From an uncultured Clostridia bacterium (lineage in GTDB: Bacteria; Bacillota; Clostridia; TANB77; CAG-508): DNA of 64,000 nt. A program made the position numbers and the translations under genes. The stretch covers positions 33,420-97,419 of the forward strand of contig CAKOWW010000004.1 of assembly GCA_934129785.1 (NCBI GenBank), read 5' to 3'. Of the stretch, positions 36,854-48,841 are shown piece after piece. The notes under the pieces are model-generated. The model was not told the DNA's origin. It did not search any database and was given only the letters and a program-made list of their open reading frames with translations. Each line of letters opens with the position of its first letter. Within the stretch, counting starts at the first letter, position 1.

Positions 36854-38446
36854 TTATTTTATTCTTTCAAATAATGGTTGTATATCATGATTTATTATAA
36901 TATTACTTTTAATTTCAACTTCTGCCCACTCTCTAAAATTAATTTTTAGGTATTTAGTTATTTTCTCCGAAGTCTTTGGCATTATAGGCTCAAATAAATT
37001 AGCCAAATTAGCGATAATGTAAGCACAATTATACATAACACCATTAAATTCTTCACTTTTCTCCTTAAATAATACCCAAGGTTTTTTGTCATCATAATAT
37101 TTATTTCCAAATTCAACCAAACTTAATATTTCCTGTATAGCATTCTTAAATTCCAATTTTTCAATATATTTTGATACTTTTTTATATGTTTCTATAGTTT
37201 TTTCTTTTATTTCTTTGTCAACTTTCCCAACTTCTATTTTTTCTAATCCTTTAAATTTCAAAGTTCTATTAACAAAATTACCGAACTTATTAACCAAATC
37301 AGAATTATGAACAGCTTTAAATTCCTCGATAGAAAAGTTACTATCTTTTTTTTCCGGACCGTTTAAAAGAAAATAATATCTTATGGAATCGGAATCAAAT
37401 TCATTAACCAAATCTAATATAGTTATACCATTGCCTTTACTCTTTGAAATTTTTTCATCATTAATGTTTAAATACTCACAAGCCACCATCTTGTCAGGTA
37501 GTTTAAAGTTCGATTCCATTGATAATAGTAGTGCTGGCAAAATAATACTATGAAATGTGATATTATCTTTACCGTGTACCATATAAATAGTAGCCTCATC
37601 ATTTTTCCAATAGTTTTTCCAGTCTAGGTTATTTTCTTCACAATACTTCATAGTGGCTGTTACATATCCTAGAACAGCTTCAATCCAAACATACATTTTC
37701 TTGTTTTCAAACCCAGCAATATCAATATCAACTCCCCAATCTAAATCCCTGGTCACTGCTCTGTCAATAAGTCCTTGTGTTAAATATTTTTGTGTTTCAT
37801 TTTGAGAATTTTTTCTCCAATTTTTTTTATTTTGCTCATAATACTTTTCGATTTTCTCTTGTAATTTTGTTAATTGAATATATAAATTTTCATTTTCTTT
37901 TTCAATTACATTTGCACCACATGTTTGACATCTTGCTTTTTTCAAATCTTCACTATTTGGATTATAACCGCAATCACATTCTTCAGCTTTAGTTTCCCTA
38001 CCACAATTTGGACATTGCAAAACTAGTTCTCTATCTGCTAAAAACTTTTCACAATTTGGACAATAAGTCTGTAAATCTTTTTTTTCAAAAATATAACCAT
38101 TATCATACATTATTCTAAATAATTCTTTTACTTTCTTCTTATGATATTCATCTTCTGTTTTTGTGTATAAATTATATGAAAAATCCATTTTATTAAATGC
38201 TTCTTTAAATTCTTCATGATAAAAACCACATATCTCTTCAGGTTTCTTTCCTTCTTTTTTAGCTCTTATTGTAATAGGTGTACCATGACAATCAGTTCCA
38301 GAAACATAAATAACATTGTCCCCCTTCTTTCTATGGTATCTCGCTAAAAAATCTCCTGGTAACAAAGCCACTAAATGTCCTAAATGTAAAGAACTATTTG
38401 CATAAGGCCATGCTCCACCTATCAAAACAAACTTTTTATTTTCCAA
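36854..38446 (-). CDS. metG: methionyl-tRNA synthetase (short form, Zn-knuckle type)
   Basis: It has HLGH (SSLHLGHLV), KMSKS as KISKSKGN, and Cys knuckles CPNC...CPNC...CDC...CQTC. The likely start is TTG at 38446, preceded by AGGGAGGAA. The track ATG at 38476 lies deeper inside the upstream gene. Confidence 0.85.
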   Translation of the reverse strand: MENKKFVLIGGAWPYANSSLHLGHLVALLPGDFLARYHRKKGDNVIYVSGTDCHGTPITIRAKKEGKKPEEICGFYHEEFKEAFNKMDFSYNLYTKTEDEYHKKKVKELFRIMYDNGYIFEKKDLQTYCPNCEKFLADRELVLQCPNCGRETKAEECDCGYNPNSEDLKKARCQTCGANVIEKENENLYIQLTKLQEKIEKYYEQNKKNWRKNSQNETQKYLTQGLIDRAVTRDLDWGVDIDIAGFENKKMYVWIEAVLGYVTATMKYCEENNLDWKNYWKNDEATIYMVHGKDNITFHSIILPALLLSMESNFKLPDKMVACEYLNINDEKISKSKGNGITILDLVNEFDSDSIRYYFLLNGPEKKDSNFSIEEFKAVHNSDLVNKFGNFVNRTLKFKGLEKIEVGKVDKEIKEKTIETYKKVSKYIEKLEFKNAIQEILSLVEFGNKYYDDKKPWVLFKEKSEEFNGVMYNCAYIIANLANLFEPIMPKTSEKITKYLKINFREWAEVEIKSNIIINHDIQPLFERIK

Positions 38447-39347
38447 TATAATTTCCTCCCTCTTTATATGTAACATACTCTATCTTTTCTTTCTTTGTTT
38501 TCTTTCTTAACTTTTTTAAAGATTTTAATTCTTTTAATCTATCATAATTTGAAAATTTAGTCTTATGTTTAATAAATTTCCAATAAAAACCAGGGTGTGT
38601 CATTACTTGTATAATATCATCTCTTTTGAATTTGGTCAACTGATTATATAATATTTCTGTTTCTCTAAAATACCCATACATTGTTCCTATAAAAGTTATT
38701 GTGTCTTTTTTACAATTTTTTTTACACATATAGTTATTTAAATACATATCATATTTAATAAAATAATCAAATTTTCTTTTTATTAGTTCCTCATTTACTT
38801 TATCATATTTATTATATTCTTCAAAATATATATTACTTTCTATTATTGTTTTATCAAATAATTCTAAATCTTCATATGGTATCCTCAAATGTATTTTATT
38901 TTTTAAAGCTATCTCTTCAAATATCCTTGAAATCTTATGATTGAAAATATTACAATGATTATGACCATCTATATGTTCTGGAAAAAAATCAAAACTTAAT
39001 TTAAATTTATCTATCTGGTTCTGAATTTCTTTTTGAATTTTTTCTATATCAACAGTATCAAGTATTGCATTTTTCCAAAACGAATGTTTTGCTTTGTTAT
39101 AATTATAATCTACCATGCACAAATCTTTCATTTCATAATTTAATAAAGGGTCGTCTGTTAGATTGATATGAATACCAACACTAGCTTTTTTTCTCATTAA
39201 TTTTATCATACTCTTTCTTAATATTCCTATTTTTCCAGTTACTATCACACTCACACTTGAAATATAACCTCTTAAAACTCCATATAAAATTCCAAAATCT
39301 CTATCTATGTCAATTCCAAAATCATCAGCATTTATTATTATTTTCAT
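38436..39347 (-). CDS. YdjC/ChbG-like carbohydrate deacetylase family protein
   Basis: MKIIINADDFGIDIDRDFGILYGVLRGYISSVSV matches the YdjC N-terminal ADDFG motif, and a later HIDGHNH metal-binding motif is present. Confidence 0.75.
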   Translation of the reverse strand: MKIIINADDFGIDIDRDFGILYGVLRGYISSVSVIVTGKIGILRKSMIKLMRKKASVGIHINLTDDPLLNYEMKDLCMVDYNYNKAKHSFWKNAILDTVDIEKIQKEIQNQIDKFKLSFDFFPEHIDGHNHCNIFNHKISRIFEEIALKNKIHLRIPYEDLELFDKTIIESNIYFEEYNKYDKVNEELIKRKFDYFIKYDMYLNNYMCKKNCKKDTITFIGTMYGYFRETEILYNQLTKFKRDDIIQVMTHPGFYWKFIKHKTKFSNYDRLKELKSLKKLRKKTKKEKIEYVTYKEGGNYIGK

Positions 39348-39384
39348 TTTCTTCTCCTAATATTTACTTTCTTTTAAATAACTT

Positions 39385-47308: not shown

Positions 47309-47320
47309 TATTTTTCCATT

Positions 47321-48841
47321 TCAATCCCCATTATTTAATTCAGGAAAAAAATACAATAAATCATAATTTTTAAATTCTTTCCCTAAAAATTTTTTATTTT
47401 CTTTTATAAATATTTTTTCAAACAATTCTAAATATATTATTTTCATAAAATAGTCTATCTTATAAAATTCATCATTAAACTTTTTTTCTTTATAAAAAAC
47501 GCTATTTTGAGCTAGCTCTTTAATTTGTGTTAATGTAACTTTACCTATAAATAAGGTTTTTAATTCTGTAGCGCCTCCTATCTTTTTTAAAACTTGTACT
47601 ACTTCTGCTGGTAAAGTTTTATGTATTGTTTCTTTATGATAAGACTTATTATTATCTCCCTTAATAACAACTCTTTGAGCAATTTCAACAAACTTTTTTC
47701 TTAAATATGGATATAGTGAATTTATTTCAAAATAGTTCATTAATATTCCATTTTTTTTAAGAACTTTATACGAAGCCATTTCATATATATCCTTATATGG
47801 TTTTATTTTTACTCCTCTAAATATTATTTTATAATTTTTTATGTAATATAATATTTTGTCAATAATTGCATTAAAGGGATGGTATAAATTATAGTGTAAT
47901 ACTTGATCTGCACAGTCTCCAAAAATCATGTTTTCAACATTTTTTTCATTTATCAACTTTGCCAATTCATATTGTAAAAATATTCCTGATTCATATATTG
48001 CTCCTTCTAGTCCCAATACTATTTCTGGGAAATTTAGTAAACTTGCACCATTAACTAATCTCGAATAAAAATTGATATTATCGTAATGTTTACTTATTAA
48101 TTCTGAATTTGGCACTTCATTTCTACCTATCATTCCACCTATAGAGAAAACATTTATTTTTTCATTTACATTCTTCTTAATGTTATAAAGTATAAAATTA
48201 GTATCATATCCAGAAGAAATTGCTACTCCCATTTTTTCAAAAATACTATCACAACATACTTTCTCTAGTGTTTTATTATATAACTCCATATTTACATTTT
48301 TAGAAACACATTTTTTATTATATCTAGACTTTCTTAATGAACATTTTGCATTATCTAACCTTATCTCTAAGTATTTCCTCCCTGGAATCTTATAGATAGA
48401 TTTCACCAATGTTTCTTTGTTAACAATAAAACCCTTGTCCAAAAAAAGTTTTATAGAATTCCTATTAAGTTTCCAGTTTTCATTTCCCTCTAATATTATT
48501 TGTTTTAGTTCATTTGATATTAGTATATATTCTTTGCACTTATAAAAATATATATTTTGATTACTTCCTAAAAAATCCTGAAAAACATATATTTTTTTCT
48601 CTTTTTTATCAATTATTATTATTGAATATGTCCCATCTAAATAATCAACTATTTTTTTTCGATGTTCTTTATACAAAGAATATAGTTCTATCATTGATAT
48701 TTTTTTTTGTTCTTTATTAAATATATTTCCAATGTAAAATAAAGAAATATCATTATTTTCAAAACATTCTGTTGTCTGTTTTATTTCTTTTATATTAAAA
48801 TTTATTCCACATTGTACTTTTAAACAAAACAATTTTCTCAT
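47321..48841 (-). CDS. divergent asparagine synthase-like / amidotransferase-fold protein
   Basis: The 506-aa product shows an AsnB-like layout (YIGNIFN..., DGTYSIIIIDKKEKKIYVFQDFLG) and a degenerate PP-loop (AISSGYDTNF instead of SGGLDS). It has no Met-Cys N-terminus (the Cys sits in ...KVQCGINF). Confidence 0.6.
   Translation of the reverse strand: MRKLFCLKVQCGINFNIKEIKQTTECFENNDISLFYIGNIFNKEQKKISMIELYSLYKEHRKKIVDYLDGTYSIIIIDKKEKKIYVFQDFLGSNQNIYFYKCKEYILISNELKQIILEGNENWKLNRNSIKLFLDKGFIVNKETLVKSIYKIPGRKYLEIRLDNAKCSLRKSRYNKKCVSKNVNMELYNKTLEKVCCDSIFEKMGVAISSGYDTNFILYNIKKNVNEKINVFSIGGMIGRNEVPNSELISKHYDNINFYSRLVNGASLLNFPEIVLGLEGAIYESGIFLQYELAKLINEKNVENMIFGDCADQVLHYNLYHPFNAIIDKILYYIKNYKIIFRGVKIKPYKDIYEMASYKVLKKNGILMNYFEINSLYPYLRKKFVEIAQRVVIKGDNNKSYHKETIHKTLPAEVVQVLKKIGGATELKTLFIGKVTLTQIKELAQNSVFYKEKKFNDEFYKIDYFMKIIYLELFEKIFIKENKKFLGKEFKNYDLLYFFPELNNGD

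Follow-up and report, generated by a model that had tools for sequence, protein, structure and literature searches.

The DNA analysed here is a 64-kb window (the whole stretch of 64,000 nucleotides) from an uncultured Clostridia bacterium, and on its minus strand at 36854-48841 it carries a densely packed cluster of 10 intact open reading frames (ORFs) and one gene remnant, in which enzymes of UDP-sugar oxidation and epimerization, a radical SAM-SPASM enzyme, a glycosyltransferase, a compact ligase and a deacetylase stand beside a complete gene for methionyl-tRNA synthetase (MetRS). The cluster family is a real, conserved and previously undescribed set of soluble enzymes, and the strict co-conservation of MetRS, which the original prediction had listed merely as the last gene, is its most informative feature. 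The product is most likely a small amino-acid-decorated sugar acid compound. In our preferred reading, which we give about an even chance, the biosynthetic genes would make a soluble antimetabolite directed against MetRS, an amino-uronic acid with amide decoration that may be nucleoside-like, and the linked MetRS would protect the producer. A wider proposal is more tentative: the family may make the first known natural-product MetRS inhibitor, an aminoacyl amino-uronic-acid (nucleoside-like) from uncultured gut Clostridia and Bacilli and from a Mammaliicoccus plasmid, and such compounds might be the pressure behind the mobile, drug-insensitive type-2 MetRS genes found on Firmicute plasmids and in Gram-positive pathogens.

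Conservation of the cluster and linkage to MetRS

The survey covered contigs encoding relatives of the ligase, the radical SAM-SPASM enzyme or the glycosyltransferase, and the cluster was found to be co-conserved in uncultured gut Clostridia and Bacilli, in separate lineages and in at least five gene orders (Table 1). Because many independent contigs repeat the same genes, their association lies far beyond what chance would give. From these orders, the core consists of the dehydrogenase and the epimerase, the radical SAM-SPASM enzyme, the glycosyltransferase, the YdjC protein and the NIS-like ligase; the genes for the AsnB-like protein and the small radical SAM enzyme, as well as those for the HAD phosphatase and the S51 peptidase, are accessory. 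Cluster-size counts did not separate core from accessory genes. One further locus (L064, 956-3793) was left out as probably a chimeric metagenome assembly: its ORFs for the radical SAM enzyme and the glycosyltransferase contain N- or C-terminal halves of foreign origin. The original prediction had named embedding of related loci among cell-wall polysaccharide genes, or a lack of co-conservation across genomes, as what would speak against it, and on both counts the results favour the finding, because the genes are co-conserved and never lie inside a polysaccharide locus: no homologous locus among those examined, the distant loci described below included, is embedded among genes of polysaccharide assembly or export.

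These results bear directly on the idea that the cluster supplies UDP-GalNAcA, or its amide, for a surface polysaccharide or teichuronic acid assembled elsewhere. TviB- and TviC-like proteins are classic capsule-precursor enzymes and AsnB-like enzymes of the WbpS type make O-antigen uronamides, but the absence of Wzx/Wzy, exporter, initiating transferase and membrane protein, already noted from the letters of the sequence, held up: the cluster proteins include no Pfam family that is a hallmark of capsule, O-antigen or teichuronic acid loci (Wzx/Wzy, ABC exporter, initiating phosphoglycosyl transferase, polymerase), none of the cluster products has a 19-residue hydrophobic segment of the membrane-helix type, and no such gene is conserved in the homologous loci. 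Moreover, the flanking genes vary from locus to locus, the AsnB-like gene is dispensable, and the radical SAM enzymes, the NIS ligase, YdjC and the MetRS linkage would be left unexplained. We therefore regard a supply of surface glycan as largely refuted and very improbable. The related suggestion of cytoplasmic glycan tailoring, such as uronamide formation, gained no support either, as the AsnB-like step is accessory, being absent in L021, L063 and L065 and N-terminally truncated in L006.

Of the window-type loci, 12 are long enough to judge (the window, L004, L005, L013, L014, L006, L007, L015, L021, L063, L065 and L066), and each of them has MetRS next to the cluster. In L004, L013 and L014 it is convergent, in contrast to the co-directional arrangement in the window, and the MetRS of order (b) is 47-48% identical to that of the window whereas the remaining cluster proteins are 58-85% identical, which indicates that the synthetase was exchanged while its place beside the cluster was kept. 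The window MetRS scored 482 bits with TIGR00398 (cut-off 336) and has no C-terminal tRNA-binding domain; it carries the motifs HLGH, KISKS and KPW, and it is of type 2, as among PDB sequences it scored best with the P. abyssi enzyme (1rqg, 356 bits), followed by human (302), E. coli (244) and S. aureus MetRS1 (about 190). No second MetRS was found within the window by tblastn. A complete gene for the presumed target enzyme is physically linked to the cluster across independent lineages, which is the pattern of target-copy self-resistance of the aminoacyl-tRNA synthetase (aaRS) type, and a second, additional gene for the target synthetase is typical of organisms that produce natural aaRS inhibitors (PMC7916415). 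A product aimed at MetRS is favoured because a synthetase gene beside a cluster is the usual mark of an antibiotic against that enzyme.

A trio of radical SAM-SPASM enzyme, glycosyltransferase and YdjC was also found in more distant organisms, the cultured carriers being reached through the glycosyltransferase search. In Mammaliicoccus sp. I-M36 the three proteins are orthologous to those of the window (46%, 44% and 37% identity, respectively), and the locus further encodes an epimerase and a dehydrogenase as well as an MFS efflux pump, a pair of ATP-grasp ligases and an NRPS-like A-T protein, with a 543-aa MetRS between an ATP-grasp gene and the dehydrogenase gene. This MetRS is of type 2 (368 bits with the P. 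abyssi enzyme versus 161 with that of S. aureus), and its contig has a staphylococcal plasmid RepA/ParA backbone (92% identity). Because Staphylococcaceae use a type-1 MetRS (PMC9071491), the Mammaliicoccus gene would be an added, plasmid-borne copy. In Laceyella sediminis, the trio occurs with an epimerase and a histidine phosphatase; a type-1 MetRS gene is convergent with this group, and mobile elements abound in the region. The Shimazuella trio has as neighbours a RimL-like acetyltransferase, an APH-like kinase, NUDIX hydrolases and a methyltransferase, and acetyltransferases of the RimL/MccE type are reported to detoxify aminoacyl-nucleotide antibiotics (PMC7916415).

Several observations weigh against the antimetabolite reading. 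Relatives of the window MetRS that are 64-75% identical occur without the cluster in housekeeping settings (ligA-metG, metG-folD-dprA and cysK-cysS-metG), and one MetRS in a housekeeping context is 82% identical to that of L006, a locus of order (c). The window MetRS is fully canonical: an alignment of linked and unlinked enzymes gave no resistance-type substitution that tracks the cluster, be it in HIGH or KMSKS, in the methionine pocket or in the anticodon motifs, and the unusual pocket motif 'GGAWPYAN' and KPW are common to linked MetRSs and their cluster-free relatives. The linked MetRS may even be the sole MetRS of the window genome and of the uncultured lineages, in which case protection would rest on the enzyme type or on co-expression. 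Furthermore, two distant trio loci (Shimazuella and a proteobacterial metagenome-assembled genome, MAG) have no MetRS, window-type clusters have no exporter, and one pathway gene of the window is a pseudogene; since this accessory gene is dead, the window product, if made, is probably a less tailored variant. Finally, the product, its acceptor and its amino acid are inferred only.

The same co-conservation would be expected if MetRS were not an immunity protein but a biosynthetic partner that supplies activated methionine (Met-AMP or Met-tRNA) for an amino-sugar product. There are precedents in the dedicated SerRS VlmL of valanimycin and in MshC, the CysRS-derived ligase of mycothiol; YdjC would expose a sugar amine, the kind of group to which the amino acid is added by a synthetase-like enzyme in mycothiol synthesis; and the catalytic and anticodon-binding motifs are intact in all linked MetRSs. 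However, the core already owns an ATP-dependent ligase (of the NIS type, or ATP-grasp enzymes with an A-T protein in Mammaliicoccus) and has no tRNA-dependent transferase (Fem/GNAT-like, CDPS or PacB-like), and the Shimazuella and proteobacterial loci manage without MetRS. In addition, three unrelated MetRS lineages, of types 1 and 2, are in use, so that 'any working or resistant MetRS' fits better than a specialised biosynthetic paralog. We consider a role as methionine donor unlikely, though it is the strongest of the alternatives.

A different reading is that the cluster makes an intracellular metabolite resembling mycothiol or bacillithiol (a thiol or thioether of low molecular weight, or else a cofactor or protectant), with MetRS as a housekeeping gene linked by ancestry or co-regulation. 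The succession of glycosyltransferase, HAD phosphatase, deacetylase and ligase parallels MshA/MshA2/MshB/MshC, the window type has no exporter, near relatives of the MetRS are housekeeping genes elsewhere (cysS-metG, metG-folD, ligA-metG), and the window MetRS is translationally coupled to YdjC. On the other hand, the cluster is patchy and accessory, with one gene decaying, as would not be expected of a central redox buffer; in Mammaliicoccus it sits on a plasmid, with an efflux pump and an extra type-2 MetRS; the MetRS of L004, L013 and L014 was swapped in lineage and inverted and is still adjacent; and the glycosyltransferase has a GT1 fold, in contrast to the GT4 fold of MshA and BshA. An intracellular protectant is thus improbable to us.

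Other MetRS genes of possible interest came to light during the searches. A second family of MetRS-linked clusters (L009-L011; e.g. L009 3897-14065), whose MetRS is 76% identical to that of the window, encodes a radical SAM-SPASM enzyme, a pyridoxal phosphate (PLP)-dependent decarboxylase, a 601-aa aminotransferase and two further radical SAM enzymes. Its decarboxylase is 58% identical to one beside a plasmid metG of B. cereus pRML02 (L079, NZ_CP011157.1 99718-112501), where the neighbours of metG include an acyl carrier protein, an adenylating enzyme, a CatA-like acetyltransferase and an ABC transporter. Lone type-2 MetRS genes were seen on mobilizable Firmicute plasmids of Pediococcus pentosaceus (L081, NZ_CP066079.1 34382-35998) and Paraclostridium bifermentans (L080, NZ_CP094935.1), the latter as an unannotated MetRS-like stretch beside a GNAT gene. 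In PLSDB, 309 records match the Mammaliicoccus MetRS at E<=1e-30, and the plasmid records of that database hold no ortholog of the ligase or the glycosyltransferase.

Enzymes of the cluster and a possible biosynthetic route

Pfam and NCBIfam support the family labels that the original prediction had given to the TviB-like, TviC-like, radical SAM-SPASM, GT-B, S51, YdjC and MetRS proteins. The dehydrogenase passed the nucleotide-sugar dehydrogenase subfamily model TIGR03026 (393 bits, cut-off 190), and its best model is that of TviB (NF011729, 420 bits), under the equivalog cut-off of 592; likewise, the best model for the epimerase is that of TviC (NF011728, 275 bits), under the cut-off of 760. 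From these assignments, UDP-GlcNAcA and UDP-GalNAcA are the predicted products of the two enzymes. Of all cluster proteins, the radical SAM-SPASM enzyme shows the highest conservation, and it carries all marks of its family, with an invariant CxxxCxxC (C42, C46, C49) and invariant C286, C304, C343 and C346. Its nearest solved relative is the cytosylglucuronate decarboxylase BlsE (7vob, E=1.9e-18), and BtrN is also among its PDB matches, but it reached only 81.7 bits with the BlsE equivalog TIGR04466 (cut-off 400) and the AhbD, NirJ and PqqE models outscored it. YdjC scored 94.6 bits with the chitin disaccharide deacetylase model NF002559, under the cut-off.

Sequence-only PDB searches gave nothing useful for the glycosyltransferase, the AsnB-like protein and the HAD phosphatase. 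For the glycosyltransferase, an AlphaFold2 (AF2) model (pLDDT 94.7) was compared by Foldseek, and the top 50 matches were all of GT1 type (UGT109A1/YjiC, the elaiophylin glycosyltransferase, OleD/OleI, CalG1-3, LanGT2, SpnP and plant UGTs). By its model, the enzyme is closer to GT1 natural-product and UDP-glycosyltransferases than to MurG or the GT4 polymer enzymes, and this fold points to a small acceptor. A phage origin was rejected, as the glycosyltransferase has no real homolog among 2.9 million viral contigs.

The 411-aa protein that had been suggested to be a possible IucA/IucC-like ligase gave, on its own, no Pfam match at E<=0.1 and no NCBIfam match, and did not reach the gathering score of PF04183. 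A search of 5.8 billion proteins yielded 250 relatives, 31 of which were used for a family profile, and this profile matched AsbB (E=3e-6, residues 246-461) and IucC (E=8.5e-5) over the ATP-binding core, with E266, Q270 and N271 invariant and aligned with the AsbB motif 'ESHGQN'. Weak IucA_IucC matches in Pfam were obtained for 20 of the 31 relatives (best E 3.9e-7), and the AF2 model (pLDDT 90.6) had only NIS synthetases among its top 50 Foldseek matches (TMq 0.6-0.76). Since the profile, the weak Pfam matches of the relatives and the structural comparison agree, the protein is, as the tentative suggestion had it, an ATP-dependent ligase with a compact NIS fold; the siderophore enzymes (full length about 580-620 aa) are longer by about 170-200 residues. 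No siderophore genes were present in the 50 genome loci of the ligase family that were examined.

As for the accessory genes, the AsnB-like protein reached 77.9 bits with TIGR01536, against a cut-off of 267 for AsnB equivalogs. As first described, it has no Cys2 and a degenerate PP-loop: the N-terminal Cys is not conserved, and the PP-loop, SSGYDT in place of the canonical SGGxDS, lies within an invariant 'ISSGYDTN'. The enzyme is predicted to be incapable of glutamine hydrolysis. It is a separate, highly divergent paralog, because a canonical glutamine-dependent asparagine synthetase is encoded at 27299-28987 on the plus strand (Asn_synthase 280 bits, GATase_7 134 bits). The small radical SAM gene is decayed, as had been proposed, with a frameshift near 47250, four in-frame stops and the loss of about 100 C-terminal residues (the last third) relative to the L004 ortholog. 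For the supposed nucleotidase-like HAD phosphatase, the phosphatase part stood, since the HAD motifs DxDGV, T and DD are invariant, but the affinity to nucleotidases (NT5C) is weakly supported: the window protein gave no significant PDB or Pfam match, and the precomputed NT5C match in Pfam for its orthologs is graded 'weak'. The S51 gene was found only in the window and in loci of the L004, L013 and L014 type.

Every chemical step of the following route is deduced from family assignments, and so are the product, the amino acid and the molecule that accepts the sugar. The TviB-like dehydrogenase and the TviC-like epimerase would convert UDP-GlcNAc via UDP-GlcNAcA to UDP-GalNAcA, and the GT1-like glycosyltransferase would load the sugar acid onto a small acceptor, such as a nucleoside, a nucleobase or a phospho-alcohol, and the HAD phosphatase would trim a phosphate. 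The radical SAM-SPASM enzyme, with the uronate decarboxylase BlsE as nearest solved relative, would remodel the sugar, and YdjC would strip the N-acetyl group to give a free 2-amine. The NIS-type ligase could then form an amide with ATP, joining either an amino acid, for which methionine is the obvious candidate, to the 2-amine or the uronate carboxyl to an amine; in Mammaliicoccus, the ATP-grasp ligases and the A-T protein would take the place of this ligase. The AsnB-like enzyme, the second radical SAM enzyme (dead in the window) and the S51 peptidase may serve optional tailoring, processing or immunity. We speculate that the resulting aminoacyl amino-sugar(-nucleoside) mimics methionyl-adenylate or the end of Met-tRNA and so blocks the MetRS of competitors, the linked MetRS giving immunity as a resistant, extra or co-expressed target. 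The suggestion of a soluble nucleotide-sugar-derived or amino-acid-conjugated small molecule, made in the original prediction, is favoured by the GT1 fold and by the exporter, A-T protein and ATP-grasp ligases of Mammaliicoccus. A nucleoside or nucleotide acceptor or intermediate is hinted at by the variants, which repeatedly carry phosphatase, kinase and NUDIX genes: the weakly NT5C-like HAD protein, the TMPK/dNK-like kinase of L066, the histidine phosphatase of L076 and, beside the trio in L077, genes of the NUDIX, TMPK and OMP-decarboxylase-like kinds.

These nucleotide-handling genes could also be explained if the trio belonged to a nucleotide or nucleic-acid modification or anti-phage system, which would make a modified nucleotide or a glycosylated DNA or tRNA base and to which MetRS would be linked via tRNA-Met or translation control during infection. 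Distant trio loci (L077, L078) do adjoin restriction-modification systems, GmrSD-like genes and prophage ends, and relatives of the ligase occur in settings like defence islands with nucleotide kinases, NUDIX proteins, methyltransferases and MccF-like S66 peptidases. However, PADLOC, in a scan that covered the NIS-like ligase and its usual partner proteins only, has no model for them, so that a known defence system was rejected for the ligase; the glycosyltransferase resembles small-molecule GT1 enzymes and has no real homolog among the viral contigs searched; and the exporter, the NRPS-like protein and the ATP-grasp ligases of Mammaliicoccus typify a secreted metabolite. A nucleic-acid or anti-phage function is in our opinion quite unlikely, and the MetRS-aimed antimetabolite remains the reading that we prefer.

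The compact ligase family itself spans many phyla and takes part in other small cassettes (L016-L062, 50 genome loci). In 14-20 loci, some of them resembling defence islands, the ligase occurs with a beta-lactamase-fold protein and a membrane-anchored protein of about 770 aa; in 8 loci with a uridine-kinase-like P-loop protein and a HAD protein; in 4-5 loci with a NUDIX protein, a methyltransferase and a histidine phosphatase; and in 4 loci with an MccF-like S66 peptidase. None of these cassettes matches a PADLOC system.

Genomic setting and control signals

The window is AT-rich (about 27% GC) and has the gene layout of an ordinary Firmicute chromosome. On one side, the cluster is flanked by genes for a class II aldolase, an AddA-like helicase-nuclease, Sua5, the canonical AsnB, MutS and MiaB, followed by VanW and DacA, and on the opposite side by those for an RsmB/F-like methyltransferase, RNase P RNA, GpsA, PlsY and Der. 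The genes of the cluster are co-directional and tightly packed or overlapping, as originally described, with overlaps of 13 nt (dehydrogenase/epimerase), 14 nt (glycosyltransferase/S51) and 41 nt (YdjC/MetRS). The comparison of base composition with the flanks, which had been proposed as a check, did not set the cluster apart, as its GC content of 0.23-0.28 shows no contrast with them.

Upstream of the AsnB-like gene, a putative promoter is followed by a leader (Table 1) with a fold z of -2.06 and no Rfam match at 48842-49068, which may be a candidate attenuator. The sigma-70 consensus in the gap between the S51 and ligase genes (12/12 positions) is a possible internal promoter for ligase, YdjC and MetRS, and it is only a lead, because AT-rich DNA such as this abounds in promoter-like matches. 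No T-box or riboswitch was found by Rfam in the window, L014, L015, L021 or L009. There are no tRNA genes in the entire window, and a tRNA linkage was rejected, as the tRNA genes in the vicinity of L015 and L021 (for Lys, Glu, Thr and Met) are of the ordinary kind and lack conservation.

Table 1. Features of the cluster with its control signals, and gene orders of related loci
Feature	Position	Strand	Size	Details
Promoter-like site (putative)	49068-49040	minus		TG-extended -10, TTTGCA-17-TATAAT; consensus match
Leader	within 48842-49068	minus	about 190 nt	Ends in a 12-bp hairpin and U-run directly 5' of the ribosome-binding site of the first gene
Divergent AsnB-like adenylating amidoligase, accessory	47321-48841	minus	506 aa	Asn_synthase 36.7 bits, GATase_7 27.1 bits
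Pseudogene of second, small radical SAM enzyme	46615-47321	minus		tblastn with intact 323-aa L004 ortholog, 52% identity
HAD-superfamily phosphatase, accessory	46031-46618	minus	195 aa	Invariant HAD motifs (see text)
UDP-N-acetylhexosamine 6-dehydrogenase, TviB/WbpO-like, core	44735-46015	minus	426 aa	Three UDPG_MGDP_dh Pfam domains
UDP-HexNAcA 4-epimerase, TviC/WbpP-like SDR, core	43767-44747	minus	326 aa	Pfam Epimerase 196 bits
Radical SAM-SPASM enzyme, core trio	42595-43698	minus	367 aa	Radical_SAM 98.3 bits, SPASM 49.1 bits
GT-B glycosyltransferase, Glyco_trans_1_3 (MJ1255/VC2487) family, core trio	41483-42577	minus		Pfam 132.7 bits
Peptidase S51 (PepE/cyanophycinase family), accessory	40795-41496	minus	233 aa	Pfam 118 bits
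Sigma-70 consensus	40738-40766	minus		TTGACA-17-TATAAT; S51/ligase gap
NIS-synthetase-fold (IucA/IucC-like) ATP-dependent amide/ester ligase	39432-40667	minus	411 aa	Core in window-type clusters
Hairpin	39384-39414	minus	14 bp	Weak T tail; ligase/YdjC gap
YdjC-family de-N-acetylase, core trio	38436-39347	minus	303 aa	Pfam YdjC 105.7 bits
Type-2 (archaeal/Gram-negative-like) MetRS, complete	36854-38476	minus	540 aa	tRNA-synt_1g 428.7 bits and anticodon domains
Order (a)				The window itself
Order (b)	L004, L005, L013, L014			Uncultured Clostridia MAGs; window order, second radical SAM intact
Order (c)	L006, L007, L015			Ligase first; no S51, no second radical SAM; AsnB-like N-terminally truncated
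Order (d)	L021, L063, L065			Uncultured Bacilli; dehydrogenase, epimerase, radical SAM-SPASM, ligase, glycosyltransferase, YdjC
Order (e)	L066, 58-2304			Radical SAM-SPASM fused to class I SAM methyltransferase domain (531 aa), thymidylate/deoxynucleoside-kinase-like gene, MetRS

Some neighbouring genes deserve a record of their own. The short RsmB/RsmF-like 16S rRNA m5C methyltransferase (297 aa, 49230-50123, minus) lies directly upstream of the cluster, an adjacency not kept in other loci. Further upstream, an AMP-binding (acyl/aryl-CoA ligase-like) gene is split into ORFs at 50594-51997 (467 aa) and 52002-52307 (101 aa), both minus, and likely represents a frameshift, a stop or a pseudogene. 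The RNase P RNA is of bacterial class A (58117-58471, minus, 300 bits). In the NFACT (RqcH-like) gene on the plus strand (ORFs 9219-9815 and 9793-10899), the Pfam match begins at model position 218, and the gene may be split, with the overlapping upstream ORF holding the N-terminus.

Significance and comparison with known systems

MetRS is a validated antibacterial target, and synthetic inhibitors of type-1 MetRS have advanced to clinical use against C. difficile in trials or beyond. The feared route of resistance is the acquisition of type-2 MetRS genes (PMC7916415). The original statement that the gene combination is not a described pathway stands, as neither the curated model libraries nor the literature searched gave a match, and the literature search returned no description of the gene set or of a natural MetRS inhibitor or its producer cluster. 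To our knowledge, no natural MetRS inhibitor has been reported. If the proposed function is true, the cluster would represent a new antibiotic scaffold from gut anaerobes, would offer a reason for the circulation of mobile MetRS genes in Firmicutes, and would add new chemistry for compact NIS ligases, MJ1255-type glycosyltransferases and YdjC deacetylases in secondary metabolism. Because a cultured carrier, Mammaliicoccus sp. I-M36, exists, the reading is directly testable.

Single parts of the cluster resemble several known systems. The ligase shares its fold and ATP-site motif with the NIS synthetases IucA/IucC, AsbB, AcsD and DesD, but it is shorter and has no siderophore genes, receptors or genes of hydroxamate or citrate pathways nearby, and the wider compact-ligase family has nucleotide-handling enzymes, beta-lactamase-fold proteins and S66 peptidases as neighbours, unlike the siderophore setting. 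Among curated models, the dehydrogenase and the epimerase score best with those of the Vi antigen precursor enzymes TviB and TviC (compare WbpO/WbpP), although both scores are under the equivalog cut-offs and the polymerase and export genes (TviD/TviE/Vex) are absent. The trio of glycosyltransferase, de-N-acetylase and SPASM/twitch radical SAM enzyme recalls the 2-deoxystreptamine logic of butirosin and neomycin (BtrM, BtrD, BtrN), and the APH-like kinase and GNAT protein beside the Shimazuella trio echo aminoglycoside logic; however, the core has no cyclitol synthase or aminotransferase and uses YdjC rather than LmbE, so the likeness is in logic only.

Mycothiol and bacillithiol synthesis (MshA/MshA2/MshB/MshC; BshA/B/C) follows the same order of chemistry, with a UDP-HexNAc glycosyltransferase, a phosphatase, a de-N-acetylase and then the ATP-dependent attachment of an amino acid to the amine, and the mycothiol ligase is a relative of CysRS. 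The differences are that the glycosyltransferase here is GT1-like and not GT4, the deacetylase is YdjC and not LmbE, the sugar would first be oxidised and epimerised, and a radical SAM enzyme belongs to the core; moreover, the ligase has a NIS fold and the MetRS is a full synthetase with an anticodon domain. Another comparison is with the hexuronic-acid peptidyl nucleosides blasticidin S, gougerotin and mildiomycin. Their pathways start from a UDP-uronic acid donor, employ an enzyme of the UDP-glycosyltransferase type, modify the uronate with a radical SAM-SPASM enzyme, attach amino acids through amide bonds and include the formation of a uronamide. The cluster would share this logic of uronate donor, glycosyltransferase, radical SAM-SPASM, amide and uronamide, with BlsE as the nearest solved relative, but the likeness to BlsE is at the family level, a CMP hydrolase is absent, and the predicted donor is an N-acetylated amino-uronic acid. 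Antibiotics of the blasticidin S type target the ribosome, and their clusters have no linked synthetase gene.

The clusters of aaRS inhibitors with an extra target synthetase are a further comparison: albomycin (SerRS AbmK), agrocin 84 (LeuRS AgnB2), mupirocin (IleRS), borrelidin (ThrRS) and indolmycin (TrpRS). The warhead of albomycin is an amide-linked aminoacyl amino-uronic-acid nucleoside, and radical SAM enzymes take part in its making. The cluster described here differs from these systems in that the target would be MetRS and the enzymes are unrelated, in that the hosts are gut Firmicutes rather than actinomycetes, pseudomonads and agrobacteria, and in that the linked MetRS of the window type is not visibly distinct from its housekeeping relatives. 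What it shares with them is a complete synthetase gene that is embedded in, or fixed beside, a biosynthetic cluster and moves with it (PMC7916415).

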